The notes: generated by a model from the letters alone, not told the origin. Positions 22,791-63,991 are shown, numbered from the whole stretch's first letter. The stretch is DNA of 63,991 bases, filler included, from Perkinsus olseni (GCA_013115125.1; 3 parts of 3 records of this genome joined end to end with filler, not necessarily neighbours in it), one strand, 5' to 3'. Made by a program: numbers and translations.

Positions 22791-22890
22791 NNNNNNNNNN
22801 NNNNNNNNNNNNNNNNNNNNNNNNNNNNNNNNNNTTAATTAATTAANNNNNNNNNNNNNNNNNNNNNNNNNNNNNNNNNNNNNNNNNNNN
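22791..22890. other. artificial contig-join spacer (44 N + TTAATTAATTAA + 44 N)
   Basis: Seen directly: exactly 100 bp, and the 12-mer places stop codons in all six frames. Confidence 0.97.
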
Positions 22891-23735
22891 CATCGCTGTT
22901 CAGGTGCAGCACGGCATGCGTACAATAGGCATGGTGCTGTCGCGTTCAACATGGGCGGTTCGGAAAACACACCCTTTCGCTGACAGTCGAAGGCCTTGGC
23001 TAAAAGTACAGCATTCCTGGCCTGACGCTGTCAGCAGGGTGCGGAACTCGGTACAGTCGGGAGTTTCCGTGTCCGAGTTCTGTGGGCGCCGCCCACTGGG
23101 CGGTATGCCAACAGCGGTATAGTAAGCCAAACTCCTTCACCGAATCAACTACTCAACTCTAGGTAACAAACAATTTACTGTTATACACTGGTGATCTGTT
23201 AACATAGACCCCCAAGCCCAGAGGGGCTACCAACTTAGTAGTACCAAGGAAGCCGTCGATGTCCGTTCTCAGCGTTATCACCGAAGCGTACGTCACGGAA
23301 GAGCGCTGTGCATGGGGCAGCTGCTTTAGGGACATCGGCGGCGGGTGAATGTGCGATCGCGTGCAACGATACTTTAATTACTGCACTTGCCGGGAAATAC
23401 GGGTAGACATTTCGACAACAAGTTGACTTTTTTATGACCAATATTGGCAGTCTGAGGGACTGCCAGTGATACTTATCAACTATAGGAATCACGCGAGAGA
23501 GGTGACCACTATAAATCCGATGTCTTACATTGTCGACGGTTACCCCAAACTACCGAAAACTTGATTGTCGTCAGATTGATCTGGCCCATCAGTCCACTGA
23601 CTGAACTCGTACCCAGCGCGTGTGACCTCAACGCTGATTAGCTAGGTAGTGCCGCCTATGATACATGATCTGTGTTATAGGCAGATATATAATACAGATC
23701 CGACTCGGATGCATGTGTCACATGCCATGTGAAAC

Positions 23736-24508
23736 TTAGGCTATGACGTATAGCAGATAATGCGCCGCATTCTTCGGCGCAAGCATGATCAGAATCGGGT
23801 GATTCAACATGATCAGCATGATCACCGCCCGCTGTGCGGGCGGTGATGATAATGAATTCATTTCTTCTTCCGACATCGTAGGATCAACAGGATCTGAGGC
23901 TGGTAGACCTAGTAGTTCAGCTGCATCCGGGGTAGAATCTGCACGTAGCCGAGCTTCATCCAGTCCCAGGAGCTGCTGAACACGTTGTGCAGCATCGAAC
24001 AAGCTCAGGGTAGCCGATTCATTACACAATACCCGTGCATAGTCGGGAGGTATACCAGCCAGGAATTTGTGAGTACATAACTCATCTCGTTCAGTAGGTT
24101 GCAAGCCTGGCATAAGATCAGATGCCATGTGCCTGAGCCGGGTAGCGAAATCCATAGGATGCTCCTTTGGGTGCATGATGCACCGTGCATCTTCTGATGA
24201 GTAAAAGATAGCCAAGTAGTTGCCGTTCTTGGTCTCAGAGCCTTAGTTAAGGCTTTTAACGCTTCTTCGAGCGTTGCTAGGGGTCCAGAACCTTCCAGCT
24301 CACGATAAATAGAATATGTAGTAGGCTCGAGATATAAGGGCAAAAGCTTCAATCCCTTAGCATCATCATAGTTATTGACCTTAAGGATAAGCTTGAAGCG
24401 TTCAGACCAAGTAATAAAGTCATCTCCAAATTTATAAGTAGGAGGATGAAGTACACCACGGGTTGAAGTTGACGAAGACATGACGGAGCTGCTACCAGAT
24501 GTAACCAA
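23736..24508 (-). pseudogene. Ty3/gypsy-like retrotransposon gag (capsid) remnant, frameshifted
   Basis: HPPTYKFGDDFITWSERFKLILKVNNYDDAKGLKLLPLYLEPTTYSIYREL...LEEALKALTKAL...QKMH/PKEHPMDFATRLRHMA...RDELCTHKFLAGIP is a typical retrotransposon gag pattern. The two ORFs fuse in frame when the 14-nt insertion at 24171-24184 is removed. Confidence 0.75.
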
Positions 24509-24829
24509 TGCAGACTCTGCGTCGCAGAGTAGGACGTCCGAGGAAATATATTATAGGAACGTATGGAATGTATATGTTAATGGGCAAAGATCACTCAAGC
24601 GATAATAGCATAGCTCAGGAATTGTTGGTAGGGACAGGACACAATTAGTCATGGAAATGGTCTGGCAATGAGACCACAATTGTCTACATTCTCTGCACCG
24701 GACGTGAGTTCAACTTACTCAGGGACGATTTGTCCCGGGCATCGGGGATTCCAGCCTAAAACCGGGATTTCAACATCCCACCTTCGGAGGTTCTCAGAGG
24801 TTCTCAGCCAGATTTTCGCTCGTATGCGT

Positions 24830-24915
24830 CAACACTGTACGTTACAGTGTTACAGTGTGACAGTGTGACCGTCACACTGTTACTAACAGTGTTACAGTCT
24901 GTAACACTGTTACAC
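24830..24915. repeat. nested direct and inverted repeats of ACAGTGT/ACACTGT
   Basis: gttacagtgttacagtgtgacagtgtgac-c-gtcacactgttac, and the perfect 14-bp inverted repeat taacagtgttacag-t-ctgtaacactgtta (24884-24912). Confidence 0.85.
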
Positions 24916-26656
24916 GAGGGACACAACAGTGGTAACCTCGCCGTTTCGCCACAACAGCGGAAAGACTAAAAATAGAAGTTGTGTCACGACGAATCAAAGT
25001 ATGTCGTCAGACCGCTTCGCTATATACCTGTTCGTTGTGCTATTCTTGGGCCAACCCTGACAAGAGCAGCCCACACCGGAGCGTTAGGTAACCCGACGCG
25101 AACCCGACAACACGTTTCATGCAGCAATAACGGGCGAGTGACATTCGAGCGTATTGTGTCAGTCAACTGGTTGGCGATCTCGACATGGGGCATCATGGGC
25201 CCACTAATATGGGATCATAAGTTATCTTAGCTCATGCAGTCATCGAAGATATATTCGAGCATTACAGTCGAGCCAGGCGGCAGATGCGCTCAGCAGGGTG
25301 GGATGGATTGTCATGGTATCACATTCCAACAGGAACCTCTAATTTTAGCTCCGCTACAATCGGGGACAGTATCTCCGGGACACGGGGTCCGGGGCACCTA
25401 GCTCTAGTGACACGGTGCGGTATACGCGCTGTGTAGCAGTGGTAGCAGTGCTGCTGCACTGCTGAAACAGAATGCACTACACGCAGTAAAGTGTTCACGG
25501 TCGCACATTCCAGAGCATCGAAGCGTGTTCTGTAGGTGACGTGACGCCTCCTCAAGTCACCTCTCAAGGGACACTTGGAGTGTCCCAAGGGTACAGTACC
25601 CTGGGTACTACCCTGCTGTCCCAGTGTCGACAAGTGGAGAGCTATAATCTATTTGTAGATTATAATGCATGGATGCCTACCGCCATGGGCGGGTTACAGC
25701 GGGTCTCCCTCACCGGGCTCTCCCACCTTGGCCTCAAATGAGTGTCGAGGAACAGCATCGATCGGTACAGCCCGTGTCTCGATGTACATAGTATTCACAC
25801 ATCTGCCATTACTGTCGAGTCGTCTGCACTAGAGTGACAACAAAGTGACGACTACAGTGTACGCTATGTAAGTTACTGTAGCTGGTACATGATGCGACAG
25901 CTACAGCCCGGTTCAGTACTGCTCAGCTGTTAGTTTTGCTACTACGTATCATCAGAATCAGATAACCGTCTGACCTTATTATGCGGTTATTATTGCACTC
26001 GCGTGCATGAGTACACGTTCTACACTAAGCCTAGCTTAGCTCAGTAAGCTGTAGATCACATTATTACTTAGCTCCCCTCAAGTCCAGTTCTACCTCTCTT
26101 TGAGCCCCGTCTCTAATAGCCACACTTCACTGAGTTATACTGCAGTAGTGATAGTAGTTCCTTGTTCTCGAAGACCATCCGAACTTGGACTTCTTGATAG
26201 TGCACGTCTCAGTCGTGAATCACGTCACGTCACGTCTGCTGTCCCTTAGTGCCATTCGCATATTTCTAGTACACATGTTTGCGATACCTAGGTATAACTG
26301 GTTGGGTGCCACGATTGAGTATCGATAGATCACTTTGGCAACCCTTCATCAATATCGTATATCAATCTCTTATTTCAATATCGTCAGGCTAGCTCCTCGT
26401 CTACGTATAGTTTGCGGAAATTCCGCTGCGGAATGATCGGTCCCTGTAGAGCTCAGCTAAACCGTTTAGCTTGACATTTAGCCGTATCAGTTAGCTGTTG
26501 AGCTTAGTCGGCGTCGGAGCCTTCGTCTCGATGCTCCGATTGCACACAATGCCTTGAAGCGGTCGTGCAGCCAAATGCACGATGATGAAGTAGACTAGTT
26601 AGTACGCCAACTCTCACACACCCTCGAGAAGGCTTCCTTCGGAGTTTCGTCTTTTA

Positions 26657-28794
26657 ATGTCTCTCACCTCCCTCCTTTGCGCAGCTCTCGTCGGCAGTGT
26701 TACCGGTCAAGGCACGGTCGTGGGCATCGAGCAGCAGAGAATACCATTTCGGAACGGAAGAAACAGAGCTACTTTCAGGTCTCAGATAGGTGCGTAAAAG
26801 AGTAGTAGTCATTTTGTCGAAGTTTTGCCTCTGTTTCCAGGTGATCTGAGGCACATTCAGACGCTCCAACTCGAACGCTCGGCCGGAGACGGGTTCAACT
26901 TCACCTCGATTATTGTGGCTGAGGATGGTTCGGAACTGCTCGCTGCCTCCAGTGACCAGGGAGGGTGAGTGCCAGCTGTTGTCCTCGCTTGGAGAAACTT
27001 CACCCTGCTCGGTGCTCGTTGTCAGACGTTTCGTTACCTTGGGCATTCAACCGACTCGTCGTGGGCGATATAATATTGGCACCGTAACAGAATATCCGCT
27101 GCTCGACTCTGATGGAAAGGAGTTCAAGATCCCCCGAAAGCGCGGCTTCAGGAATAGGATGAGTAAGCGGCTTGAAATTGCCTACGTTCTTCTCACCAGC
27201 TCTTTATATGGCAGGGCCCTGGCAAGGGCCCCCTGTTCTCTGTATCACAATGATCTTCCAGCTTTATCGCACGCTCGTTCGCATTCCTAGAGATAAGCTT
27301 GAGTGCTCACTCGCCGCTATTGTATTGAAGCGTATTAGTCTTACGGTACTATTTTAGGCTTGGCGGTCAACGGTACATATCGTTCCGGAGGCCGAGGAGA
27401 TCTTACTATAGCTTACGAAGGTAATCCTAGTTTCGTCCTGGAGAAGAGAGCTTCGAGGTGAGAGAAGAGGGCTGGGTCCATATGCTCCAGGTCCAGCATG
27501 GCAACTCTCGTCTTGTACTGGTCTACGATGGTCATCAGATTCCGTAGAGGCGTCGGGTCAAGGAGCACTCCCCTTGACGTTTCTACTATCCAAAATATCT
27601 GCGATGCAGTAGTTGAACCTGGAGTAACGATCGCTCGCCTGGGTAATGTGACAATACAACTTGGAGTCGTCAGTATGTGTATCTTCAGCGGAGAATGGAG
27701 ACCTACTCTTCACCTGCCTTCTAACGGACCTATTCTTGGGCGATGTCTCTGAACCTCCAGAGCAAATTCCCTTACCGATGGGGATATATACTGGATATAC
27801 TGTTCATGATTTCAGAGTTGAGGTAAAACTATCAGTCGCCTTCATAATGAAGGCTCCATTCAGTTCGGCATTGAAAATGCCGATCACCCTCGCCTTCTCC
27901 TCCGGAGGCTAAAGATCTTCTGAGGCCACACCGTTCGTTATGCAATTTTCAGATCGACGCTCATCAATTATCCCACGCTTTTGACTTCGTTGTACTCAGC
28001 TCGAGAATTTCAGGTCACCTCTGGGTACGATCCTATCGCTATGGCGCCGCTCAAGAATGGTGACATAATGATTGCCTTCGTTGCGTACACCAACCCCAGG
28101 AAACTAAGAATCAGTTATTTGACGTCTGAGCAGCTGCAAGAGGGTATTGATGATTATTTTAAAATTCTACGTCCAGTGGTCATAGCCGATATAGATCAGG
28201 CTGATGGGTAAGGCCGGTGACATCTGCTCGGCTCGCGTATGGTGCCATTGTCGCCGCTGGAGGCCCTCGCGACTACTTTCTCACATCAGCCGCGCGAATA
28301 AATTTCCTTTCACTCCGGCGAAGGATTGGATATGTCAATGTCGCCGCCAATGAGCTCCGTCCCATTGCTTGATTTTACTGTTCTTGCTGACTGATGGTGT
28401 GTTGGTAGGTACGAAATTGGTCATCAATCTGGGATTGCTGTGCGAGAAGACCGTGGACGGACATTCGTCTACAGCATGAGTGACGACTCGTTTGTAAGAA
28501 GCGCCAATAAGGATCATTGTCTCCTCGGAGGATCATTGTCAAACACTCACAATTTGGACTTCTTACTTCTCAGGCACCAGGGAAAACCTTGCTCACCACC
28601 TTTGAGTGGAGGCCCACCAGAAATCGTTAGCCATAAGTATGATCAACGTTGTACCGTCATCGTCGATCGTGTCTCAGTCTGATCGGCGATCAGTGATCGC
28701 TACGAAGCTGCAGTTGTTCGTAACAGCAATACATTGGCCAATCGATGAGCTACCATGGGTTTTGTATTATCTTCAGCACGTACGTTGCGTGTGA
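26657..28794 (+). CDS. secreted esterase-like phytase family (Phytase-like) beta-propeller protein (multi-exon)
   Basis: Signal peptide MSLTSLLCAALVGSVTG. Spliced motifs FNFTSIIVAEDGSELLAASSDQGG, GLAVNG...LTIAYE, MAPLKNGDIMIA, and GIAVREDRGRTFVYSMSDDSF...TKLQLF match the S-D-x-G / EGLA..E / EGIA...SDDNF...TxLxxF pattern of this family. Confidence 0.55.
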
Positions 28795-29146
28795 CTTAGT
28801 CACACAAAACTCGACTTGGTCGAACATCTTTTCGTGTCTTCTCATTTTTCATCATCACAACCACTCAGAACTGGTCGCTTGATGCGAGAGTCACTTGGTG
28901 ACTAACCTCCTCTCTGTAGCAGTCAGTGTTACAATTTTGGCTGAGGACAGTTCTTCAGTTGTCGAGTTCATTTGGCGGTCGGTCCGCTCCGTGTACATCA
29001 ACAGGTAGTAACTCACTAGTCATCTAAGCGGGCTAATTCATGTCACCGGGACGCCGACTCATCTCCCAAACGCTGTCAAGACGATGTATCTCGTTTAGTA
29101 AACATTGTGTGATACCACATTCTTCATAATTCATTGAACGCATTGA

Positions 29147-29219
29147 CCCGCAGCGGGAGAGTAAATCACCGGCGGTGATCTACTCTCCCGCTGCGGGATT
29201 CAGCGGTGATTCACCGCTG
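29147..29219. repeat. double hairpin (25-bp arms with 1-nt centre, then 9-bp arms with 1-nt centre)
   Basis: cccgcagcgggagagtaaatcaccg-g-cggtgatctactctcccgctgcggg (one mismatch) followed by cagcggtga-t-tcaccgctg. Confidence 0.9.
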
Positions 29220-29359
29220 GAGCAACCGTTGCTTTTGAATCTCGATGTCTGTTAACCGTTAGGGAACTCAAGTTAATGGTTTAATGGAATCCTTAGATTC
29301 TGCCAATAATAGTACTAATAAAGTCATCAACTGGCGTCAAGCTTAGAAAGTTTGACAAG

Positions 29360-29992
29360 CTAGCCCCTTCCCCTAGAGACGAAAGCAGGCAGAGGAAGTA
29401 ACATCTTGTGATGTCTCTTTCGCTTCAAAAAATAGAACGTGATTCGATGCAATCGATAGAAGCCGCTGGAAGAAGTACAACCACTTATAGGACACTCGCT
29501 TTGCTTAACATTGTTAGACTTGGCGGTACTATCAGAACGGAGCCAGTGAATGCGAGACACAGACGTCAACGACAGCTTATCCCTCCACTGGGAGAGTTCA
29601 AGAGATGCATCAGCAGCGAAAATTTCGCTGCGAAATGATGAGAATCAGTACTAATCTCGTGTGTAGCAACACAATACCACTCATGCTGGTAAATAGTATG
29701 AATAATAGGGTCAGCAGGGAAAACAAAGGTCGGTTTATCAGGTAGTGACAATGGCACTGAATCGAAATTAATACAGTCTCTACTCTTAGGATCCAGATCA
29801 TGATGATTTGATCATCTAGTGGGTAAGGTAGATCTTCTTCAACCTTATAAGCATCGAAGTCAATAACCTCTCTTTTCTCAGAACAAACTTTACAAGCATT
29901 AGTATCACTAATCGCACTACAGGAAGACTTACCAACACCACCACCGTCAGCTCCATCATCAGCACCATAGTTATTACATTCACTATCCTTGG
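29360..29992 (-). pseudogene. decayed ORF of unknown origin (possibly retroelement), broken by two 14-nt scars
   Basis: Removing the scars at 29615-29636 and 29795-29816 joins three reading frames into DSECNNYG...EEDLPYPLDDLDPKSRDCINFDSVPLSLP...HHFAADASLELSQWRDKLSLTSVSRIHWLRSD. Confidence 0.45.
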
Positions 29993-31265
29993 ATACCGCA
30001 CGTACAAAGTTTCCGAAGAATGTTTCTCGGAATTCTTCCGAAAATTTCCGAAAGTTTCTGAAATTTGCGAAAAACGGTATCTATGCCGTTTCAGATGCTC
30101 CCAGCCAGGTCCTCGGTGAGAGCCTCACGCGAAAACCGATAGGAATCCGGGACCGAAGGCTCCATTCGGAGCCGTAGGAACGAAGCCTGCGACTCTGGGC
30201 ATTCAGAGATCTTGCGAAAAGAAACTTTTCAGTCTTTCAAAGAAGACAGTGTCTTCAAGACACTCCGCAATGCTTCACGTACATGCTTTACATGTCTTGA
30301 CGTGACATATAGAGTCTAAGGAACGTATCTCACGCTTCGAGGAGCTGTGCATGATGATAAGGCAGGTCTCATGCGTTGAAACTCCCTCACCTTCGAAAAG
30401 TCCCTTCAGGAAACTTTATGCGAAAGTTTCCGCGGAAAGATTCTCAGGCACCCTATTCAGACACCCTCACTATGTTCATCCCATGTGTGCTGCAAGTATT
30501 CGACGGACTCGCCATTGGGTTACATCCAGCAAATTTGATTCTTGGTCGATTCTTCTGCGCCGAGTTCGACGTCTAATTCGATCTCGATCACAGATTCATC
30601 GTTCTGGAAAAACCCGACAAGCCAGTAGTTGAAGAGATAAAATCTCAACAGTGGTGGGAGAAGACTCGAATTCATCGCTGCCGAGGTTGCAAGGATGCAC
30701 CCCCAGCAGGTGACCCGCTCACGACTGATTTTGCCAATTTTCTGTGTATTATATTAGATTCTAATAATAAGAATAAATATCATATTCTTGCTCATGTGAC
30801 GATGGTGATGTTACTCTGCCAATGTCGTGTCGAGGAGTGTTCAATTATATTAACCAAAAAAACAGATGCTGGAGACCGGATATTTATGGACGTCGATCAT
30901 GGCGGATTGCCATAATGGCAGTGCCACTGAAGATTCAACACTGATCGTTACTCAGAATCTGAACGGTTTAATGGTCGTCAATGGTCACCTCAAATTTGAG
31001 TCTCGGATTGAAGGTGGTCTCGAATAAACTGCATACTACACCTTACACCAATGCCGAACCGACATTATCGATGACTTGCCTGTTCATGTTTAAGCGCGTT
31101 GGCACGTACTTATTCAAGTGGGTAGCCCTGCCTACTATTGGCACTCCTAATTGAATCATGTAAGTTGAATGCCGATTCATGATACATTGGAGCCTCGAGG
31201 TCCTTAGTGGATCGGGTCGATGCTCCAATGTGTCAAACTCTCCTCGTTACGAGGAATCAAGACCT

Positions 31266-31460
31266 TCAAGACACCTTTGCTCGACCAAGGCTGCAGCGGC
31301 TCATTCTTGAAAAAATCGGCGAGCTTAGTTGTTGACAAGGAGTTATCGTGAGAATTCCAAGGTACTTAGTCAACACAAATATCTTTGCCATTGAGAGACT
31401 TGGCTGAAGCAAGTGGAGTTCTAACCTCACCTGGCAGGGCGCCCCCCCCTGAGGCAAAGC
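31266..31460 (-). mobile_element. non-LTR (LINE-like) reverse transcriptase fragments
   Basis: RALPQGGA (cf. GxPQGxxLSP) followed by TKYLGIL (cf. KYLGI). The segment expected between them, including YADD, is missing. Confidence 0.35.
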
Positions 31461-31756
31461 TCTGCTACTGCTGACGAAAATGTCGTTCGGACGAGAATGT
31501 CACAGTAACATTGTCAACTCGCTCTTATCAGGATTCGCAGCTCGAGAGCTGCAGACACTGTCTGAGTCTCCCCTCGATGACGATGCCTTCAGAACGGTTT
31601 AGTACAGGCGCTTCAATACCAAGTAAAAAGAAGAGATAACTTTACCATATGATGGCAATGCTTTGAGTAATAGCGAAAAAATGAGTGGCCTGAGCCTGTC
31701 CACGACCTCAGGACTCCTGAGTTCGCCTCTCCTGAGTCAGGAGAGAAGATCACGCA

Positions 31757-32107
31757 TTAGTAGTTGTCGGGAATGGAGCCTTCGCCACAGAGCTTATTCA
31801 CCTCTTTGCGGAAGGAAGGAATGGTGAATGGGTCGACAGCATGCTTACCATCTGGGAAGAAGTCCTTCATAGGGACGGGGATTCTCGTCGAATAGGTGGT
31901 TTTAGAGGTGGAGAAGATAGTGCTGGACCCTCCAAGACTCTTGCTATCGCAGGTCAGTGTGATACTCACGTCAGGATAGGAGGCCTGAGTCATCCTCACC
32001 GAGACAGACCCCACATCAACCGTGAAGTCAAAAGCGTTATCAGTGGTATCACTCGCCCTCACGGCGATGACCAGAGCCGATACCGGTGACAGTAGAGTGA
32101 TGGTCAT
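31757..32107 (-). CDS. small putative secreted protein (possibly truncated or pseudogenised)
   Basis: From the ATG at 32107: MTITLLSPVSALVIAVRAS (signal-like) followed by a beta-rich segment ending ...FRKEVNKLCGEGSIPDNY. Confidence 0.4.
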   Translation of the reverse strand: MTITLLSPVSALVIAVRASDTTDNAFDFTVDVGSVSVRMTQASYPDVSITLTCDSKSLGGSSTIFSTSKTTYSTRIPVPMKDFFPDGKHAVDPFTIPSFRKEVNKLCGEGSIPDNY

Positions 32108-33408
32108 CCTTTTGAATGAAGCGATGTTTCGAAAAAAAATACCAAAAGCATTCAGCAATTGACAATCCACATCATAAGTCCGAGGAAAGGAAATTGCTGA
32201 GATGCGCAACTCCGTGCACAAGTGCAGTGGCAGTGCTGAGTCCCGTCCGAGAACGCACAAGATGGTCCCGCATTCGTTCCTAACAGGTATAGCGGGATCG
32301 ATTCAGAAGCCTGATCAGCCTTCGGCGAAGGGGGACAGTCCCGCTCCAACGACCTCCAAGGGACTCAGAGAAGCGTTCGTTGCAACGGTGGTGTGAGGGA
32401 GGTTGATCACCCTCCTTCTCGATCAAGAGCATCGCGCCCGGACAGCGAGGGGGGCAGCGGTGGGAGCAATCGAGGTCTATCCCGAGTTCTCAACTCGGCG
32501 AGACGTCGCTGCTGTCTCCGGCGCCGAGACTCTGGTCCACTCGAAAATCTAGACCCCGGCCACACTGGCCAAGACAGTATCCTGCAACTGTGAGACTGAG
32601 TTCACAGAGGGAGCTCGCTTATTCACATCTCTCACAGAGTTGTTTGAGTTAGATGAGCATCCCGGCCATCGAACGGTATTCTTGCGGACCTTACCCAATG
32701 TCATTGGGCCAATGAGTAAGATTCGAGTTCAATGGGTGATACCCATGCCATGCACGTCGTGCATTGCACGACCCTTCACTTAGGTGCCCCTGGCCGATGT
32801 ATTGCCAACAATGTGTAAGCGTCGATGATGGTTTGAAGTGAATTGTTGGGGCCACGTCTTACAAAACCTCTTGCCTGGATACGTGTGGCTCTAATGATCC
32901 ATCGAAAAACTTTTCGTTATCTCCTGCGATAGTCTGAACACACAAGCAGCCTGTCCCCAAGCGCTTGTAGCGTTCAATCGATGCAGCATATACTGGGTTA
33001 TGAGAATTGGTATCGTTGGAGATGCACCAGTTCATCGCGAAATGGCGTTAACCATGAAATGATTATCGCGAAAACCGCGAAGTGGTAATCGACCTTATCA
33101 CTTCCTGTTTGAGCAATGTTGAAAATCAACTTCGCCAAGACCTAACGCGGTCTTCGAGGTTAACCTTTTTTCTCGCGAAGTGAAATGCGTGATGTAGTTT
33201 TCGCCAGCGGTTTTCACTCCGCGGGCGCATCTCCATTGTTGTATCTACAAGTGCTTACTCCTTGCGAGTTCAACCTGGGAGGCATCAGTATCGCTTTCGC
33301 TGGGTTCTGAGTTAGAACTTCCAACACCCACGATTCGAATTCTCGGATTTTCGCTCCCCTTGTCTATTGACGCACTACTCGCCGCGCAAGTCTCATACCA
33401 CACCTCAG

Positions 33409-36942: not shown

Positions 36943-37200
36943 CTGATCCTTCACACTGTATCCCTTGCGTTGCTCATGCCCGGACATTGCACAAAAACTG
37001 TCCCGCACTTGTCAAATTATTTCCAACACAACAGTCGAGTAACTCGCTACCGAAGCTCGATGTGAATGGCTGGTAATGGTAGCAGTGGTAAACGTAGCAA
37101 TAGATACAAAGGCCTCTCCGAAGGGACTTAGTCCCGACTAACGATGAGCAAAACGAAGAGGGAAGCCAAAGCGTAAACAACAACAACATTTTCCCAGCTT

Positions 37201-40200
37201 TTACATGGTCTCAGCATTCCGCGCTCGACCAATATTGCTCACAACCGGTCGAAGCTTCCGCAGAGGGGCGACCACTGGGCTCTGGTCCTTCAAGGACACT
37301 CCGACGAGAGCGATCTGGCCGTTGCTGGCTGCAGAGATACCCGCCCATTCTACAGAAGCAGGGAAGTCGCCATGGACGGTGGCACGGGCCTCCAGAGCAC
37401 CTGATGTCGAAAATGTCGGAAAATTGAAATTGCTAAATTTCATTATTTTAAAATTATTATTGCCTAAAATTTTAATTGTCAACTATCATGGCCGAGCCGA
37501 GTTCAAACACGTCAGAACATGTCTCAACAAGTTCATACTACATGACATCCAAGATTAGACAGTACAGCATCGTTCTAGTATCGACAGATTCATTTTCGGA
37601 AGACTTCGACACATCACAATCTCCCTGATGGCCGTCCGCCACTAGGCCTCGGAACCTAGTCTTCATAGAGGCTTTCCATGTCAAGCAGAGTTCCGAGGCA
37701 GAGCCCTATCATATCTTTCCTGATGGCAGCGGATTCATGCCGTCTGCGCCTCCTTAGTAAAGCCGAGCTAGGAAGCTCAGGCCGGGATGCCGGACGCATT
37801 CAAACTATCTTTACAATTCTTGCTGATCCGACCTCGGGCCGTCAAGTCTACAAGAGCCGCTACCTGGGACGAACGGACCCATAACAATGTGACACTCAGG
37901 ACCAACCCTCTCGGACCATGGCTAACTTGATATCTTATCCACTAGGCACATAGATCTGGATGATTCCGTGTTCGTTCCGAATACCCTCCCCAGTTTGCTC
38001 TTGACTCAAGAGTCTTGAGCTTCACCAACAGCCCGAAGGTCTCGCGGCAGACTCGAGATCCATATTTCTCACAAGATCTTCGCAACTGTTTCCAAAATAT
38101 TTCACGCATTACCGTCGCTTAGAGGTGCCTTGGGAGCACCCTCCTTAGTGCTGGTTTCTTCGTTGAAAGACCGAAGTACCATGCTCGCCCCAGACCGGGT
38201 GGTACCGTGGCATTCGGCGCTTCCAGTTGTACTGCTTCTTCCGCTCTGGCGTAAGTACTCCGCTCATGAGGCATAGCGCGTTGAAATATCAGGTTGAAAC
38301 CTCCCGCAGTTGAGGCGAAAAAAACTTTTTCGTTTTTTGGCGATTTCCGAAATCGACCAAAACCCGTATCTATTCCCCCTACCACTATGAAGATCTATCC
38401 GCCCGGCAGCATAGTCCGGATGCTCCTCGGTGGTCGTCTCTTGCCACAACACATACAACTTCTCAACGTTCGACCTTTTATGCGCCAAACCAACCACTTT
38501 TCCAGGAGCCCTAAGGACCCTCTCAACCACCAGAGAGGACGACGATCCATCGTATCTAAGGTCGATCATGGTAAGATTCATTCAAGCTCAGCTTCCTGCC
38601 TACCTGACCAACTGGATCCACTGAGGATGCTCTCTTGTAACGACTGCAATCTCGTCATCAGCCAGGAACTCCGCCTTCACAATAGCGCTGCCGGTGTTCA
38701 TGCGGGCCGTCTCTTCAGCAGCCGATTGCTCACATCTCTTCAACCCACCCTCGGACAAAACAGCGAAGGTCGTGTTGGACCTGAAGATTCCTTAAATGGA
38801 ATGATCGATCAAGTATCTCAGGTTGAAGCCCGACATTGACCAGTCTAATGATTCCCCGAGATTATATAACTCGTCATGCATTAGGTAACAATGAATTGGA
38901 ATCTTAGGTTGAAGCTCGACCTTCTCAGATCGAAGCGTAGTCCCCCAACTTACGGCGTCACCGCCACATCAACCGCCCTCTCGCCAAAAGGAATGTCGCA
39001 CTGAACATCCGCACCAAGCTGTGGAGAGTAAATGGTGCCCTGAAAAAAAGAGGATGCTGATGAACTATACCCGTAGTAAATTTTCCCATCAAATTGATTG
39101 CGTTGAATCATTTGATTAAATAAAAAATTACACCAATTTTTCCCAATTCATCAGCTTCGAAAACTTCCTAAAATAATATAAAAATAATACACTCATTCAA
39201 ATGCCTCCGGTTTCACAATACCATAACATCCGTAACTCTCATCACATGAAGAAGCGAGGTAAACACAGCCACCAACGATACAGGTTGAAAAGAATTCCGA
39301 CGATCGAGACAGTTCTAATAAACCAGCTAAGAATAATGAAAACTTCACCATCAACAAACCTATTAAAATCATCAACGACTTTCCCTAATAAACAATAACA
39401 TGGCTCATTCACGCGCCCAATTCACCATACCATAACAAACGTAAATCACATTACCCCCAAACCACAAAGAAGTGCCTCACCAACCGCCAGCTGACCTCAT
39501 TGCTGGTGAAGACCAGTCCAAGCTCGGGGATGTTGCTGACCCCCGTCGGACGGAAGAACGGCGGCCAAGCCCCGCTGGTCTCCGAGGACTCAACATTCGG
39601 ATAGAACGCCGCTGACAGCCTTCGAGTGAACTCACCATTACCGAAGGGATTCGAATCAGGCCAACCTAAGGGAACAAAGATGAATCGCCATTTTATCGTC
39701 CATTCTTCTTGCCACATCACCATCAGCGTAAAAACATGAACAACGCGCCCCGCTGAACAACAGCGACGCTTGTAACGGGCAGTAAATCCATACTGCGGAA
39801 ACCATTAATCCAAATTGTCTCAGCGATTACTACAATCTACTGATCTCCTGAATCTCATCCACGTCTTTTATATCATGGACGAGTGAGACATACTCGAGAC
39901 CAAAGGCCAAGCCGCAGATCCCAGTCGAGAGGACGCTTCCTCCAGAAACGACTTTCGAATCATGTCGACTTTCGATTTTCGATTCTTCTCCGGGTAAAAC
40001 GCCTCATTAGTGCAACGTGGCGCTTGTCTCGCAGCGGAAATCGCACTGATCTACATGATGTGTAAACAAAAAAATATTTTCAACTTTTTCCCGCTTTTTC
40101 CACTACCTACCATCTACGTAACAATGACTAGTATTCTCTATACAGTACTACGCGAAGCTTCAACACGGAGAAATTTTGCAGATGAACTGACGGTATCTTT

Positions 40201-45645: not shown

Positions 45646-45745
45646 NNNNNNNNNNNNNNNNNNNNNNNNNNNNNNNNNNNNNNNNNNNNTTAATTAATTA
45701 ANNNNNNNNNNNNNNNNNNNNNNNNNNNNNNNNNNNNNNNNNNNN
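45646..45745. other. artificial contig-join spacer (44 N + TTAATTAATTAA + 44 N)
   Basis: Same structure as 22791-22890. Confidence 0.97.
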
Positions 45746-46896
45746 TAAACTCTGTCGAATCCTCCGAGGCTTTGCAGAGTCGCCTGGCCGAACAGCGGCC
45801 GTGAGCGAGAGAGAGAGAGGACAGAGGAGTGACTCGCTCTCCTTAGCCACTGTTACATCTCTACATGAGTTGAACTCATTAGTACTAGTACATTGAGTTC
45901 TAGCAGAGCAGAGATCATTTCTCCGATAAATTAGACGGGAATGGATACTATACACTGGATAGCAAAGATGAAATTGAACACTTTCATTGATGTAAGAATC
46001 CCATGGAATGCTCCTAAGGAAGACTCCAGACGACTGGATTATCAGGTCCTGACAGGTTCTCCTCAAGTTCCTGAGGAACAGCCTTCCCAGGGAAGGCTTC
46101 CCTAGGGTTCGTCCGACAGACTTCGTCGAGAAGCCACACTAAGTGATATAGTGCAGTCATGGGACTGAACTCGACTCGATGCACGTATGTAAATCTCAGT
46201 AGAAAGCACATATCACTCGGGAGCTCCTCTACTCTTACGCTCTCGCCGCAATGCTAAATCGATGAAGGGAATTCGACACGCCACTGCTTGACGGTATCTG
46301 CACACGATTAAGATGCCCACTGTCAAAACGGATTCCCGATATAATACGCCACCCGCGTGGGATGTGGCCTTGCACTGCAAAGACCAACGGATTTTCTCAG
46401 GGGCTGACAGTCAGGGCCTGACTGCCAGGCTGAACTGAGCTGCGATGATCTTACTGAGGTCAGTCAACCTTCGGCCGTGAAAGAGTCACTCATTGAGGGT
46501 GAATCATACTTACAAGCACAGATTTCCACTTCGAACATTGAAAACTTTTCAATGAAAAGGCATCGGTCCATTCGATATCCAGCTCCCGGATTTCCGGGAG
46601 CCGGATATTGCATGGACCGAGGCCAAGGCTTATTCCGGCATCGAGGCTGCCTTCCGAGCCCAAATGTAGCTACTGAAGCTATTGGAGGTTCCTCCCCTCG
46701 AAATCCCACAGCTATTAGCCTGAAGTGGTGGCTGAGAGCGTCACCGTCCCGAGAGCTATCTCCGCGCTATTTCCGCTCGCCCTAGACAAGAGTTGCGGAC
46801 GCGCCAGTCGGACTGCCGTCTCCCCATCGGGTACGAGACATTTCCTCGAGTGTCGGCCTACTCAGTTCTCTCGCCATCCTCTCAGCTTTGCTTCAA

Positions 46897-49986: not shown

Positions 49987-50968
49987 AGTTTCCGCTCCAC
50001 TAGAGAGCCACTGCAGAAATGGAGCGGTCGAGTCCTATGTCCACCTTGTCGGAGGAGATTTCACGAGCTCAGACTGACCTGCTCAGTCCAGCATGGCTCA
50101 ATCTTATCTGTGGTACTGAGTCTCCAACGACGGAGAGGTCTATCGACGATGATTAATGATAATTTACCGTGTTACACTTCTCTTGTGGCCTCCTGTGTGT
50201 GGAGGTAGCGACGTCTACATGTGCTGTTGATGCTTGTTCGAGAGGCTTATCCTTGAGCAAAGTGGATCCAATTCTACACAATGAATCCCTGGAGACAGGG
50301 GCGAGGGCGGAATGAGCAAACGTGCTCAGGGTAGCCTAAGGGCAGCACAGTGAGGTATCGCCATAGCTAGCGGCTAGCACGTCTGCCCTAGACTGAGTCT
50401 GGTAGAGTCTAGTAGACTCTAGGGCCCAGAGGCCCATGACACGCCGCTCATGTCATCGTATTGCCTTTCTCATGCCGCAAGGCTAATACAATGCGCGTAT
50501 GCGGTGACCCAGAAAGCCTCGCGTGAATGCACACCGCGTTTCACGAAGAAAGCGTCCTCTGCGCTAAGACTTGAAGTCTTAGACTTCCTCCCCGTACGGA
50601 AAATGAAGGAAGGTTGCAGCCAATATTATTGGCGCGGCCTGACTGCCGATCTCTGACTGCGGCCTGCAACTTGCAGGCCGCAGTGTTCTCGCCAATATCA
50701 AGTTGGTATAAAAAACTGCTATCATAGCAACTGCAGCGTTCTGTCCTTGATGCCGAATCGCGGGGATCGCAACCTTCGAGCAGAATGCTCAGCGGGCACA
50801 GCTCAGTGCAGCGCACGCCAAGGAAGCGGAGGATGCCTCCGCTCGCCCGAGACGACCAAAAAGCCGATTAATCGTGCTACTGTCGTCTCCTCCCCCACGG
50901 TGGGGACGCCCCTTTCCCGGCCATGATTGGATCGCCCCCTTTACTCAGTTAGTACTCATCACATCGAA

Positions 50969-53059: not shown

Positions 53060-54015
53060 GATTTCCGCTCCACTAGAGAACTACTGCTGAAACGGAGTGG
53101 CCGAGTCGTATGTCCACTTGTCGAAGGAAAGTTCACGCGCTCAGTCAAGCACGGCTCAACAACCATAACTGTAGTACCGAGTGCCTAATGACGCCGTCAT
53201 TATGACGGAGTGGATAATCGTGATGCATCTCCTCTCGTTGTGTGCAGAGATAACGGTGTCCACATGTGCTGTTGATACTTGTTCCACAGGCTCATCCTTG
53301 AGTAAAGTGGTTCCTAGTCTACACGCACGCCGATAATCCGTTGTCGTATACTTCGTTGTCGTATTCATATAGTTCATGGGCGCGCGGGTACGCGCTTCCG
53401 TGCCCTACGGTAATCGCAGTACGATTCTCGACGAGAATTAATCGTTTTGTCTTTGGAACGTGGATTTCACCGACTCCAATTTACTTCAGGAGTCTTAACC
53501 TTGTTTTCGAAATGCTCCGGCACAATAGGTGGTAAGGTAAGGATACCGCTAGAGGGCCAGTCCAACTGTCGAATGATACATCACCCGCGTGACCTAGCTA
53601 ATCTCTCTGCTATCGATGGCTAGACCTCCACAGGGTACATCAGAGTTCACCAAGGTGCCCTCTGTGCTGCCACTCATAATATGAAAAATGACGGAGTGCT
53701 CTTGGCCGCAGCTCCCTCGATATACCAACAGCTGGTTTGTCGCAAGCTGGCAGCCAACTCTAGCGCTCTGTCCGCAATGCTACTTGCTCTGCAGCCGCTG
53801 CTCTGTCCACCGCACGTCAACACAGTGGGAGATTCGTTCGCGCTGTTTTCGCTCGCCCGAGACAGCGGCTGTCACCTGGCTGTCTGATAGCCAGAGAGCC
53901 GAGCTATTATGCTGCTCGCGTCTCCTCCCCCGCGGTTGGGACGCACCTTTCTTGGTCACGATTGGATCGGTCCTTCTAGCGTTCCTTCCACTCAGTTTGT
54001 GTTCACCATATCAGA

Positions 54016-59947: not shown

Positions 59948-60068
59948 ATGGGAAAGAAACGGAAGAAGAAAAACTATAAAGAACAGACAGGATTTTCGAA
60001 GGTCAGTTTTGGCCAATTGTGATCGGCTCGTATTAGCGACAAAATCTACAAAACTTGTGCCACCCGAA

Positions 60069-60110
<42 letters not shown>

Positions 60111-61512
60111 TATCATTATCATCATCAGCATCATTATCATCATCATCTCAGCCCGACAGAGGTTCTTTCCCTTCAGTTTTTCTCGATAAAGAAGTTACTC
60201 CCGACGACCTCCCTCCTGAACCTTCGAGGCGAACAAGGTGAACAGAAACTCTCGTCATCCGATGAGCTCTAGACATTTTCAGATTCTCCAAGCAAGGGTT
60301 GGCTCGGGTATTTCACGAATGACTCGGCGGATGAACCGTGGTTCAGTGGGTGGTTCGGTGACGATGACGAACAAAACGACGGGCAAAATGAGGGTAAGGC
60401 ATCCTGCAGACGGTAGGGGTCTTGATTTCACCACAGGTTCGGACGAGAAGAAGTCCAGCAAGAAGGAAAAGTCGAAAACGAAAAAGAAGAGAAAAGAAAG
60501 ACGCGTGAAACGAGAACAATCATGTGAGTTCACCCGAGAGAACTTTGAGTAGCTCTCGGCGCACTCAGCACCGAGCGAATCCGAAGACAATCTTTCATCG
60601 TTTAACGGCTCCAACGACTCCGACCTCGCGAGTGGCGGTCGGTATGGAAGGTCAAGACGTTCTCGAGGCTATTCTGAGTCCGAGGATGAGGACAGCTTCC
60701 ACGAACAAACCTCTGTCGATTCTGAGGCTTCGTTCAACTCACGCCTTGAACGCAGCGGAAGATGTTGCGAACGGTGTGGTTATAGTCCCGGTGGAATCGA
60801 CAGCGAATGCAATGAGAAGGATGAGGACGAAGCTGAGTTCGAGGGGAATGAAGATACTCCGGACTTGGATGACGAGGTCGATCTAGAAGAGATGGACTTT
60901 GATACATTCTGGAAGAACCTGTGGCAAGTCAACGTTGACAGCGGTGACAATGAAAAAGAAAAACGGCAGGATCCCCGGATCGCCGAGCTCGTTGAAAGCG
61001 ACCCCAAGGCCGAGTCCGTCCCTGGGGAGGAGTCCTGGCTGCATCGTCTATGGGAAAAATTCTTCGCAAAAAATAGTGACGCGCCGTCCGAGACAATCAA
61101 TGCTCAGCCGAAAGAAACCAATACCAGCAGCCCTGCGACAACTGGGACTCCAGCAGTACCGGCAGTTCCCGTTTCGGCGGAGCGGAGTTTTCTGAGCGAC
61201 CGAGTCGTTTATCCTGGCGAACTCGAACCCGGATTATTAGTGGAGGATGAGAGTATTCGAAGGACAGAGAAGATCCGAGAGTGGCTCAAGCGCTATGCCT
61301 CGGTCCACAGGGATATCACAACGCACAGTGAAGAATTTCAGCAGCAGATTCTCCCGGCCAGAGCTCCCTGTGGAGCCGTCCGGGCCCTGAGAGATGTGAC
61401 TTTAACATGCTATCGAACGCCATTACCGTCATCGTTTACTGACGATCATGCTCGGGAGATCCGCATGTGCCACAATGGAAGAATGCATGATGGCAGCCTT
61501 CGACGATCATGA
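59948..61512 (+). CDS. acidic, low-complexity hypothetical protein (multi-exon; 3' end uncertain)
   Basis: Spliced MGKKRKKKNYKEQTGFSK|FFSIKKLL...|DSPSKGWLGYF...|GSDEKKSSKK...|SPSESEDNL...DDEVDLEEMDFDTFWKNLWQV..., with phase-consistent GT-AG introns. Confidence 0.55.
60069..60146. repeat. (CAT)n microsatellite, probably intronic
   Basis: About 26 CAT units with occasional TAT/CAG variants, lying inside the first predicted intron of the 59948 gene. Confidence 0.95.
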
Positions 61513-63991
61513 TGGTGTTCCGCTACAGTTGCCATTTTGTTCATAGTCACCGACAAGACCCAGAGGACCTCCCTTGAGGGAACCGGACGAACCATCTGAT
61601 GCTGATGGATGGGGGCCTCGAACTGAGCGCAACTGCACTGTTCTTATCACAATTGTATCCGTGGGTTGTCCTCGTCATACGATAGCTAAAGTACTGGGCC
61701 GCCTAGCGCGACGTATATTCGTGCTCCCCATCTCTCAGCTTGGATTGTGTTACGCGCTTATGGCATCTAGGACACGATGTTGATGGCAATCTTCTCGGCT
61801 TGTCATCGGTTGGGAAGGTGAAATTTAATTCCAGGACTTGTGACACCTTCTTTGATGCTCAGCTTTGTGTGCGCGGCTGATGAGTTTGCCGCAAGCAGAA
61901 CTTTGCAGACGATCATATTTACCCTTGGTTGTGGTGGGTAGATTGGATGGTATACACTACATGTGATAAGTTATTCGTTTTATCAGTTCAATCACTCACG
62001 CAATATTGAGATAGACTAAGGAGAAGTTTTATTACTTGTTAGTAGAAGTTGCTAAAATAATGGGATCAGTAAATCCTCCTATGGCGGTTATAAGACAGGA
62101 ATCGTAATCGAGAGAGACGAAGTGTGATGGGTCATACTTTTCAAGTACATAGAAGAAGAACCACGCCTCACCGAGCAAAACATAAAATCAAACAACCACA
62201 AGAACGAAATACATGAAGAAAATGAACTTTAATGAACCCCCCTCGGGCGCGTAGATCCATCTATGTACATACGTACAGCACTTCCGCGAGGTACTCCAGC
62301 AACCCGGCTTGATAATTACCACTGGTAATTTACCAGCATAAATTACTGCAACCTGGTGCAGCCTTTTCTGCCACAAATATCTTGCCGACAACGCTACAGT
62401 AATCGATAAACAATCAACGTAACCTGCCAAGGTACCTGTAGACAGATCCGGTTACCCCGATCGCTTATCACAGAGATAAGCATTTTGACCAAACGCTAAC
62501 CCACCCGGGGGCTGAAGTTGACCAAAATTCTGCCACGCCATTACCTGGGTCATCGGTCCGATGACATCGGAAACAAACAACCTAATACTAAACGAAGACC
62601 AACGTGTGAGCCCTATAATACAGCGCAGCGAGTCGTCTACCTCGGACTCTTGGACCTCCACTTGTAGCCCTCCACCATTTTCACGCGCCTACAATTAAAC
62701 CTGACATAACAGGACAATATACCAACCTCCAACAATATCTTAACGTCACCACTGTCACAGTGGTGCCCACAGTGGCACTTTGCGCACCTGGGAAACATTA
62801 CTTGCAACTAACTACAATGAAGCTTAAGTCATTGACTTAAGCTTAGGCTTGACAAGCCTAATGAGCTCAATCAATCATCGTTAATCGCGGCCCTACGAAA
62901 GCCGTCATTGATAATGTCCAAACAACCAGGAAGGAAACAACAAATAATTATCTAGTGATTCGCCCCCCCACTGCGAGCAATTCTAGCTAATTCCCTCCGC
63001 GGGCACGTTGACCCATTTATGTGCACGCGTCCGGGAACCTGGAACCTGATTACGAATTAGTAATCGAGAACCTTGAACGGGCCCAAAATATCCAATAGGA
63101 CCCCTGACGCCCAGAGCAGTAAGATATCAAAACAGAGTAAGGAGACTGCTTCACTTCTCAGTGTGCGCGCCTGTTGAGGTTCTCCTGAAGATGAACACCG
63201 GCGACGAAACAAGACGCCAGTATAAATGCAAGACGTTCTGGAAGAAAAGTTCGATCGGATCGCGCTTTCGCTTAGCATTTGCCGCACCGTTCACAAATAT
63301 TCACAGCTCCCGTTGGCGTTTCCACTCAAGTTATGTCCCCGAGGCGTTCACAGAGGCGACGTCTAGAAGATGTATCTATAGGGTTGGGTTTTTCCTTCAA
63401 GCTTTTCTTGAACTATGCGAGCAAAGTTTCGCAATGTATAACCTATCTTTCGAACTTCTTCGGATGCACTCTCCGCTTTCATCTCCTGTAACTTACAGGC
63501 TGTAAGCGTCGCAAAAAAACGTGAGTGAATGAATACGGAGTGAATACGTGAGTGAATGCGGCACTCAGAAGTTCTGAGTCAGAACGCAACCGCAATGTAT
63601 GTGTGAACGAGAGGGGTTAAACATCACGCATCACACTCGGTTTAACCGAGTCGGTTAGCAATGGATTGAGACACGGCAGAGCAGTGATAGTGATGATTGG
63701 TATATTAGCAAATTAGCAGTGGCGTCTCTCATTCTATCAGAAGAAGCGATAAGAGCATAATCGTCGCACCGCCCAACATGATGCCGCCTCCCTCATTACC
63801 GAAACCCATAAATTCAGCTGCTTTGTGCACATACCATTCTTTCCGGTCATTTCAATATGTGTGGACTAAAGCTCGACGAACTATGCTCGACACGGCAGCC
63901 TTCTGCCAGCACCGGTTGTACAGTACCCGCCATCTAAAGACAGGTAAACTTTCAACGGGGCTCACGCAATCAATTTTTAGAGTTTGGGCAT

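Follow-up and report, generated by a model that had tools for sequence, protein, structure and literature searches.

A uniform 22-nt scar in Perkinsus olseni DNA, probably the excision footprint of a transposon with 8-bp target-site duplications

The sequence analyzed here (the window) comprises 63,991 nt from Perkinsus olseni, which belongs to a genus of parasites of molluscs. Two N44-TTAATTAATTAA-N44 linkers (22791-22890 and 45646-45745) connect the three contigs of which it is made, and an artificial joint falls inside the span (23082..63657) that an earlier note had assigned to a repeated "7-8-7" scar. The scar is a 22-nt sequence that reads T[1-7]+revcomp(T)+T[2-8], where T is an 8-mer, and a scan of the full window located 22 exact sites (Table 1). 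All 11 exact sites of the earlier note match this form at the coordinates it gave, and 11 more were found (starting at 4839, 7469, 21251, 28679, 37998, 46538, 50566, 53187, 62315, 62550, and 63485). Its two one-mismatch sites were also as described, with one broken pair at 26413 and, at 29795, a single altered middle base that disrupts 2 pairs. The 7-8-7 observation is real and stronger than first reported.

Table 1. Scars and homologous empty sites in the window
Feature	T	Position	Strand	Basis and remarks
Exact 7-8-7 scar	GCCCCTGG	4839..4860	.	window scan
Exact scar	CTGAGCTC	7469..7490	.	window scan
Exact scar	GCTAAGGG	21251..21272	.	window scan
Exact scar	GTGGGCGG	23082..23103	.	window scan; kept with small indels in high-depth repeat contigs
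Exact scar	GCATGTGA	23711..23732	.	window scan
Exact scar	GGTGCATC	24170..24191	.	window scan; 14 nt missing from other copies of repeat
Exact scar	AGGGTACT	25588..25609	.	window scan; unchanged in X1 record 5
Exact scar	CTGATCGC	28679..28700	.	window scan; polymorphic between runs
Exact scar	AGCGAAAT	29615..29636	.	window scan
Exact scar	GAAGACAC	30242..30263	.	window scan
Exact scar	CCCAATGA	32694..32715	.	window scan
Exact scar	ATGCACGA	32750..32771	.	window scan; 56 nt from scar 32694
Exact scar	CTCTTGAG	37998..38019	.	window scan
Exact scar	CCTTCCCT	46082..46103	.	window scan
Exact scar	TTGAAAAG	46538..46559	.	window scan
Exact scar	AAGACTTC	50566..50587	.	window scan; paralogous region too diverged for scoring
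Exact scar	AATGACGG	53187..53208	.	window scan; single 8-mer in paralogue
Exact scar	ATTACCAG	62315..62336	.	window scan
Exact scar	TCATCGGA	62550..62571	.	window scan
Exact scar	CCTGTAAG	63485..63506	.	window scan
Exact scar	CTCAGAAC	63564..63585	.	window scan
Exact scar	CTCGGTTA	63636..63657	.	window scan; last of five scars within 1.35 kb
Scar, 1 broken pair		12969..12990	.	window scan
Scar, 1 broken pair		24508..24529	.	window scan; 14 nt missing from other repeat copies
Scar, 1 broken pair		26413..26434	.	window scan; one-mismatch case of earlier note
Scar, 1 broken pair		27839..27860	.	window scan
Scar, 1 broken pair		30752..30773	.	window scan
Scar-like site, 1 broken pair		46409..46430	.	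window scan; second weak match at 46402 overlaps
Scar, one changed middle base		18902..18923	.	window scan
Scar, one changed middle base		18969..18990	.	window scan
Scar, one changed middle base		23227..23248	.	window scan; other copies without the 14 nt
Scar, one changed middle base		29795..29816	.	window scan; second one-mismatch case of earlier note
Scar, one changed middle base	AGCTCAGT	50066..50087	.	14-nt insertion relative to paralogue
Empty site, homologous to scar 53187	single AACGACGG	50126..50133	.	paralogue mapping
Empty site, homologous to scar 50066	single CGCTCAGT	53138..53145	.	paralogue mapping

The earlier note had expected a sharp peak at a repeat unit (k) of 8, and this is what the window returned. 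Exact counts were 271, 26, 2, 0, 0, and 22 for k = 3 to 8 and 0 for every k from 9 to 15, while the means of 50 block shuffles were 251.5, 16.2, 0.96, and 0.06 for k = 3 to 6 and 0 at higher k; the exact k = 8 form was absent from all 250 shuffles performed (50 and 200). Mutated copies occur in graded numbers: sites with 0, 1, 2, and 3 broken pairs numbered 22, 6, 13, and 17, against means of 0, 0.015, 0.27, and 2.5 in 200 shuffles. The scars decay through point mutation.

The geometry is equally narrow. When middle lengths of 6 to 12 were scanned in all combinations with offsets of 0 to 3, a middle of 8 with both offsets at 1 (8/1/1) was the only enriched form; the other nonzero forms either numbered 1 or 2 against shuffle means of 0 to 1.2 or were 8/1/1 sites with a chance extra base, and the zero-offset 8/0/0 form was absent from the window. 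With the arms and two tip bases fixed, a spacer of n = 8 gave 30 sites versus 1.0 in shuffles, and all other spacers from n = 1 to 24 gave 0 to 4 versus about 1 (n = 2 gave 0), a scan that is blind to deletions and precise restorations and that has no strict form at n = 0, where there are no tip bases to fix. Since every spacer from 1 to 24 except 8 lies at background, classic short footprints are absent. All 22 letters of each exact scar are fixed by T, with no constant foreign part, and the base complementary to the outermost base of T lies at the center of each palindrome.

The scars avoid long open frames and cluster. Stop-free stretches of at least 200 aa make up 22.6% of the window and contain none of the 22 exact scars (binomial P = 0.0036), an indirect check that agrees with the earlier placement of the scars in intergenic or decayed DNA; five scars are clustered within 1.35 kb. 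The claim that the target 8-mers show no obvious consensus holds insofar as any preference is weak, but an nYnnnnRn preference exists: among the 44 symmetrized observations from the 22 sites, position 2 is a pyrimidine or position 7 a purine in 32, and the narrower T (position 2) or A (position 7) in just 16. The target preference of Hermes is nTnnnnAn (PMC10368747).

Next, homologous DNA was compared, using tandem paralogues within the window and contigs built from public runs X1, X2, X7, and X8. The two halves of scar 53187 align to overlapping intervals (50099-50132 and 50129-50145), as do those of scar 50066 (53109-53144 and 53139-53177, with an overlap of 6 nt, t2-t7); the paralogue alignment shows scar 50066 as a gap of 14 columns opposite a lone 8-mer. 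In the run contigs, 4 of the 12 indels listed (of 222) leave out 14 nt, and all 4 begin one base inside a scar. Among the indels listed, those at 24171 (contig depth, 848 versus ∼78 for single-copy DNA) and 24509 occur in all four runs, that at 23228 occurs in X2, X7, and X8, and that at 28680 occurs in X7 (depth 199.1 of 199.1, 2 contigs) and not in X1, X2, or X8. Against paralogues, further copies of the repeats, and a second strain, the scars stand out as insertions of 14 nt. The single-T state that the earlier note proposed to seek at homologous places is present at two paralogue sites and, as the omission of 14 nt, opposite four scars in run contigs. Scar 23082..23103 is retained in high-depth repeat contigs and therefore probably predates the spread of its repeat.

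These comparisons bear on two readings in which the 22-mers would not be scars of any past event. Fold-back library artefacts can produce inverted triplications and the window is a concatenation of contigs, but a sequencing or assembly artefact, such as fold-back chimeras, is barely credible here. X1 and X2 contigs, which come from two studies and possibly from the same strain as the window, reproduce long scar-bearing stretches as independent contigs with 0 differences at ordinary single-copy depth (X1 records 5 and 8; X2 records 13 and 16). The graded mutated copies, the depletion from long open frames, and the difference in state at 28679 between runs likewise argue against an artefact. A reading of the 22-mers as functional elements under selection (double palindromes that bind protein, or small hairpin RNAs), rather than as neutral scars, is also highly improbable. 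Clustering in noncoding stretches and the two alternative hairpins possible in each 22-mer would fit such a role; however, the 22 T sequences are nearly without consensus, so that a common binding partner would need to recognize shape only, the sites decay by point mutation, and they are missing from paralogues and other copies with no sign of compensation.

We consider each 22-mer to be, probably, a footprint left when a cut-and-paste DNA transposon, previously inserted with an 8-bp target-site duplication, was excised by hAT-type chemistry. Integration would duplicate the 8-mer T. On excision, the transposase would nick each flank one base away from the element, and the 3'-OH so released would attack the opposite strand, giving a left flank hairpin (t1-t7/c8/c7-c1) and its mirror hairpin on the right flank. 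The host would then open or resect the hairpins at least 8 nt from the tip, leaving each 3' tail with a copy of T in inverted orientation, and these tails would anneal over their sole long complementarity, the 8 nt of c8-c1 with t1-t8. Trimming of flaps and filling of gaps would leave t1-t7, c8-c1, and t2-t8, a gain of 14 nt. Worked through on paper, this model of two hairpins and 8-nt annealing yields exactly 7-8-7. Two hairpins that each hold all of T could not come from one unduplicated T; therefore, duplication, and hence integration, must have come first. The element, the superfamily to which it belongs, and repair by resection and microhomology annealing are inferences, and "hAT" here would denote a chemistry rather than demonstrated membership.

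A transposon-free host process was also considered, in which fork template switching or snap-back synthesis during polymerase-theta-type end joining would copy the local 8-mer in reverse and then again in the forward direction. Local sequence is the template for all 14 inserted nt, with no foreign letters, and no element was found in the window, both as this process would predict. However, insertions made by template switching or polymerase theta show a spread of arm lengths, spacer lengths, and positions, whereas all 22 exact scars have a length of 8 and two offsets of 1, and neighboring geometries are at zero or background. An invariant stagger of 8 bp points to a cut defined by an enzyme, and the inability of a single T to supply both hairpins also counts against this process, which we judge to be improbable.

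No published description of a stereotyped 7-8-7 scar was found. Among known systems, Tc1/mariner excision leaves a stereotyped, recognizable scar that can serve as a record of earlier visits, and the P-element footprint retains the element's terminal letters. Tc1/mariner scars hold the element's terminal letters between TA duplications, whereas the Perkinsus scars hold no element letters; a P-element footprint was rejected because the exact scars are wholly determined by T, with no constant foreign part. The P tracts of V(D)J joints are usually 1 to 4 nt, and the RAG/Transib duplication is 5 bp. RAG and Transib cleave precisely at the border rather than one base beyond it, and the matching 8/0/0 form is absent here. 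The scars nonetheless resemble the P nucleotides at V(D)J coding joints, where a hairpin flank made by RAG, which is related to Transib, is opened off-center and the palindromic extension is retained (related matter in PMC5499845). Stowaway/mariner footprints are mentioned in the abstract of PMC4561436. A MULE footprint, with duplications of at least 9 bp (8 to 9 bp in Muta1) and mostly precise excision, was rejected, as k = 9, 10, and 11 gave 0.

The closest likeness is to hAT footprints (Ac/Ds, Tam3, and Hermes), which combine an 8-bp target duplication with palindromic insertions centered on the complement of the base adjoining the element, a hallmark explained by flank hairpins (PMC5873905). 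The repeat unit is likewise 8 nt in 22/22 exact scars. According to the same source, published hAT footprints are heterogeneous deletions and short palindromic tracts, with 28 types among 128 revertant colonies and arms of at most 3 nt in Candida and variable arms of up to 20 nt in yeast, while the scars here are almost uniform. The mixed spectrum that is typical of hAT excision, although not strictly defining, is not seen in the spacer scan, where, of n = 1 to 24, n = 8 alone rises above background. Nearly all recognizable footprints here are of one kind, in which both tracts reach their full 8 nt and are merged, whereas in yeast the full inverted-duplication product would be at most one of many. 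Yeast Ac/Ds hairpin ends are reported to be joined via microhomologies near the ends (Yu et al. 2004, cited in PMC5873905), which resembles the repair proposed above.

To look for the element itself, the window was searched for exact 8-bp direct repeats enclosing 12-nt terminal inverted repeats (TIRs; at most 2 mismatches) within 8 kb, and 0 pairs were found. A relaxed search (1 mismatch in the duplication, 14-nt TIRs) gave two matches, both rejected: one belongs to an inverted repeat of 42 nt (81%) and does not represent a duplication, and the other sits in a tandem gene array. Neither a Pfam transposase domain nor a Merlin domain was detected in the 150 longest of the window's 189 stop-free frames of at least 90 aa, and no occupied allele (T-element-T) was seen at the 16 joints checked, whose edges share no common 8-mer. 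The earlier hAT-excision reading is partly upheld, by the k = 8 peak, the single-T sites, and the footprint geometry, but not as to the transposon, for which the searches of the window gave no element, transposase domain, or occupied allele.

The same process (8-bp duplication, flank hairpins, and annealing over the inverted duplication) might instead belong to a non-hAT superfamily, namely Merlin, an 8-bp MULE, Zisupton, or Novosib, a doubtful but not negligible alternative. Zisupton and Novosib are candidates with 8-bp duplications. Literature searches found no published report of hAT elements in Perkinsus, for which Dada elements with a 6- to 7-bp duplication are reported, and no hAT domain was seen in the window's 150 longest frames. 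Perkinsus marinus has Merlin-related ORFs with a conserved DDE motif, and Merlin makes 8- to 9-bp duplications, but these P. marinus copies are without TIRs or duplications (PMC8101967). Similarly, the MULE Muta1 makes 8- to 9-bp duplications and flank hairpins, but a 43-bp flank of Muta1 gave a hairpin of 43+43 nt, and its excision was precise in more than 90% of cases (PMC5499845). Both Merlin and Muta1 also make 9-bp duplications, yet scars with k = 9 number 0, and in the literature examined the one-base offset at both ends is documented for hAT only (PMC5873905).

Under hAT-type excision, repair in this genome quite likely follows one stereotyped route, with the transposon unseen. The window holds 22 scars and 0 resident elements in 64 kb, which would require either that excision outnumber retention by a very wide margin or that the element be extinct.

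A recurrent 22-nt motif, reading T[1-7] + rc(T) + T[2-8] for an 8-mer target T and hence 14 nt longer than a single T, is probably the excision footprint, or scar, of an unseen transposon with 8-bp duplications and hAT-type chemistry. Each of the 13 sites named in the earlier note had the sequence given there, and a vectorised scan identified 22 exact 7-8-7 scars in the window, double that note's list of exact cases (scars are named here by start coordinate; t1-t8 are the bases of T and c8-c1 those of its inverted copy). Exact counts for target lengths k of 3 to 15 were 271, 26, 2, 0, 0, 22, 0, 0, 0, 0, 0, 0, and 0, compared with means from k = 3 of 251.5, 16.2, 0.96, and 0.06, and then 0, in 50 block shuffles; the k = 8 peak over shuffled sequence that had been predicted was thus present in the window, with nothing at k = 6, 7, or 9 to 15. 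When mutated palindrome pairs (broken pairs) were allowed at k = 8, matches with 0, 1, 2, 3, and 4 broken pairs numbered 22, 6, 13, 17, and 62, against means of 0, 0.015, 0.27, 2.5, and 19.6 in 200 shuffles, with some of the three-broken-pair matches being 7-nt-offset shadows of exact scars. Slippage loss between the 6- to 7-nt direct repeats could be the cause of the excess of intact scars over those with one or two broken pairs. The lone change in the decayed scar at 24508-24529 is CG to TG in the first arm; CpG deamination would fit this single case.

The geometry of the scar was nearly uniform. Across middle lengths of 6 to 12 and offsets of 0 to 3 on both sides, the sole enriched form was 8/1/1 (middle length 8, one-base offset on each side). 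Matches to 9/1/3, 9/3/1, and 10/3/3 (10, 3, and 1, respectively) were 8/1/1 scars plus a chance extra base, other nonzero geometries were observed once or twice against shuffle means of 0 to 1.2, and the 8-8-8 form (8/0/0) was absent from the window. With the arms (7 nt each) and both tip bases fixed and the spacer n left free, n = 8 gave 30 matches versus 1.0 in shuffles, and every other spacer from n = 1 to 24 gave 0 to 4 versus ∼1; the classic short footprint (n = 2) had 0 matches in the window, and n = 0, which lacks tip bases altogether, had no strict test. A handful of near-variants of the scar were seen, such as a 7-6-7 form at 24877.

Scar density was 0.13 per kb in the first contig, which is GC-rich and gene-dense; the remaining contigs had 0.44 and 0.49 scars per kb. 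None of the 22 scars lay in stop-free frames of at least 200 aa, which make up 22.6% of the window (P = 0.0036), and two lay in those of at least 150 aa (34.9% of the window); this scarcity is as expected if selection removes +14 frameshifts. Scars were also found close together: 32694 and 32750 were only 56 nt apart, and the 1.35-kb stretch 62315-63657 contained five. The earlier note had seen no obvious target consensus, which held for all positions except 2 and 7, the others being near background; at those two positions the restored targets had a weak symmetric preference, with a pyrimidine at position 2 and a purine at position 7 in 32 of 44 symmetrised observations. At 25576-25615, removal of scar 25588 restores a target region that is a 13-nt palindrome with 6-nt arms around a central C, which could have been left by a previous event at this site.

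Copies of the tandem array in the third contig provided homologous sites for comparison. Scar 50066-50087, which has one changed middle base, aligned to a 14-column gap in the next copy. Its halves, mapped separately, matched 53109-53144 and 53139-53177 and shared the six bases t2-t7, so the next copy has a single 8-mer at 53138-53145. For the exact scar 53187, the halves, likewise mapped separately, matched 50099-50132 and 50129-50145, and the copy with these matches has a single 8-mer at 50126-50133. Each of two array copies bears a scar missing from the other, and the single-T state that the earlier note expected of orthologous sites was found in these paralogues. Scar 50566 was left out of the comparison since its region is too diverged.

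Eight public DNA runs contain the stretch. Contig sets from public runs (X1, X2, X7, and X8) were compared with 22891-42890 at 80% likeness, and 4 among the best 12 of 222 indel rows were contigs without a scar's 14 nt (at 23228, 24171, 24509, and 28680), each starting at the second base of a scar (23227, 24170, 24508, and 28679). The depth of ∼850 in contigs at 24171 and 24509, versus ∼78 for single-copy DNA, reflects the collapse of copies from a repeat family whose other members lack these scars. The 14 nt at 28680 were missing from two X7 contigs (depth, 199.1 of 199.1) but not from X1, X2, or X8; scar 28679 is therefore polymorphic. The motif of scar 23082 was retained, with small indels, in high-depth contigs, and this scar thus probably predates the spread of its repeat. 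The remaining eight exact scars of 22891-42890 had no row among the best 12 of 222. The X7 and X8 records across 31518-32913 have 55 and 69 gap letters. Contigs of X1 and X2, which come from two studies, have single-copy depth over 24619-28211 and 30134-42890 and retain the scars there, with 0 to 2 differences from the window. X1 and X2 may be the strain behind the window's assembly, so they exclude an assembly artefact yet are not independent biology. That the motifs are artefacts is countered by these contigs, by the graded decay series, by the polymorphic scar, and by the scarcity of scars in open frames.

Passages of PMC5873905 explain the palindromes of hAT footprints, centered on the complement of the base beside each element end, by hairpins on the flanks. 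The scar palindromes t1-t7/c7-c1 and c8-c2/t2-t8 are centered on c8 and c1, exactly the two bases of hAT footprints. In a route worked out on paper, of which the product is the part observed, the left flank hairpin would read t1-t7, c8, c7-c1, and the right one, on the bottom strand, c8-c2, t1, t2-t8. If each were opened or resected at least 8 nt from its tip, the 3' tails would have one common 8-nt complementarity (c8-c1 with t1-t8), and annealing over these 8 nt, followed by flap trimming and fill-in, would give t1-t7, c8-c1, t2-t8. A border-exact cut would instead yield the absent 8-8-8 form, and because a single T cannot give both hairpins a full T, integration with an 8-bp stagger must precede. 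A weaker 6-nt annealing (t2-t7 with c7-c2) would restore the target precisely; precise restoration and deletions escape detection here, so "one outcome" means one visible outcome. The uniform product points to resection and microhomology annealing, as opposed to opening near the tip and direct joining; under this model, either the opening of hairpins close to the tip or classical end joining would be expected to be absent or weak in the organism. The P. marinus CRISPR paper is silent on which end-joining genes exist.

Hairpin footprints of the hAT type are known, and the present ones differ in uniformity and scale. In passages of PMC5873905, 128 revertant colonies of Candida gave 28 types of footprint, with arms of at most 3 nt, and arms in yeast were variable and up to 20 nt long, whereas the window scars are almost uniform. 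The MULE Muta1 also forms flank hairpins, but the part of PMC5499845 that concerns it gives >90% precise excision and includes 9-bp duplications, and k = 9 is empty in the window. The scars are putatively assigned to hAT: they have two features that define its footprints, an 8-bp duplication and a one-base offset, and empty sites exist, but no element or transposase was found in the window. The hAT interpretation of the earlier note passed two of its own tests (the k = 8 peak and the single-T sites), and its transposon was not found in the window.

Exact 8-bp direct repeats enclosing 12-nt terminal inverted repeats (TIRs) within 8 kb gave 0 pairs in the window, and exact direct repeats of 5 to 10 bp with 12-nt TIRs gave chance-level matches only, at 5 to 6 bp. 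A relaxed TIR/duplication scan returned two matches, neither a credible element. The inverted match between 30857 and 36136, a pair flanked by A6, spans 12 nt with one mismatch and does not extend further, and TIRs are absent from a ∼0.85-kb repeat unit whose loose ends lie at 23836 and 24692. Pfam identified no transposase domain in the 150 longest of 189 frames, the matches being Kelch, AKAP28, and weak Branch and OB. At 16 contig joints checked, no 8-mer was shared at the edges, and hence none is an occupied site (T-element-T). Among other Perkinsus elements, Dada is described with 6- to 7-bp duplications in passages of PMC3706591, and the window has 0 tRNA genes, so that Dada targets are not involved; Merlin-related open reading frames (ORFs) appear without TIRs or duplications in the relevant part of PMC8101967, and the Tc1-like family TRT is said in the abstract of PMC5630946 to be common in protozoa. 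Introners of Amoebophrya, with direct repeats of 3 to 5 nt, are unrelated to the scars. The literature searched, outside most subscription journals, Repbase Reports, and supplements, held no hAT report for Perkinsus and no account of such scars.

The window joins three separate contigs, so features across the two linkers are not physically linked. The longest frame has one database relative, a Perkinsus olseni hypothetical protein (90% identity over 76% of the query), which places the DNA in Perkinsus. For its 1066-aa ORF, Pfam gave no match, no sequence in PDB matched with E below 0.75, and the best Atlas match scores 0.75; the 710-aa and 404-aa array frames had no Pfam match. In metagenome scans, 0 of 78 candidate stretches qualified as relatives of the 1066-aa ORF and a 35-nt piece of a high-copy repeat had 0 matches, and the two scans gave no further Perkinsus DNA.

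Features of the window other than scars
Feature	Position	Details
OB-fold, weak	333-779	Pfam, open frame
AKAP28	6205-6555	Pfam, open frame
Kelch repeats	10904-12420	Pfam, in several open frames that are probably exons of a single gene
Contig linkers, N44-TTAATTAATTAA-N44	22791-22890; 45646-45745	Join three contigs; both have stop codons in all six frames
High-copy repeat families	22891-24891; 25559-26225	Public-run contig depth 10-40x single-copy (up to ∼3000 vs ∼78)
Alternative joints	25861-26092	Many, in public-run contigs
Core-2/I-branching enzyme, sub-threshold	33412-34953	Pfam, open frame
Skewed segment	36001-44000	∼8 kb; sustained negative GC skew (-0.14 to -0.22), positive AT skew; rest of window differs
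Inverted repeat, 42 nt	41867-41908; 45086-45127	81% matched; arms ∼3.2 kb apart; no target duplication seen; may be inverted gene fragments
Tandem array	46786-55191	At least 3 paralogous open frames (1066, 710, 404 aa); period ∼3.05-3.08 kb; 76-89% nt identity between copies
Longest frame	46888-49986	1032 aa from first start codon; 1066 aa stop to stop
CAT microsatellite	60069-60147	26 copies; only tandem repeat in window above score 80

Cut-and-paste transposons normally erase most traces of their past, their copy number is a poor guide to the frequency of movement, and the usual footprints are too varied to be recognized in genomes. In the window, exact scars occur ∼1 per 3 kb, and resident elements number 0 in 64 kb. 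We tentatively propose, as a possibility that we do not favor strongly, that Perkinsus, an alveolate parasitic on molluscs, has or recently had a hAT-like transposon or transposase of a hit-and-run kind, with scars orders of magnitude more numerous than its resident copies, and that hairpin-capped breaks in this genome are never opened near the tip and are always resected and joined by annealing at the inverted duplication, with a single deterministic +14 outcome. If this were true, much of the indel mutation in the genome would take the form of such scars, and cut-and-paste transposition, ordinarily without a legible trace, would here have a fossil record that can be counted and dated. A deterministic 22-nt scar makes past visits countable, datable through mutations, and genotypable across strains; through its one-base offset, the cutting chemistry of an unseen enzyme can be read from sequence alone, and it informs on the repair of hairpin-capped double-strand breaks in a protist beyond the usual model organisms. 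Frameshifting +14 scars, with their local double palindromes, generate mutations and supply polymorphic markers in an organism that parasitises farmed molluscs.
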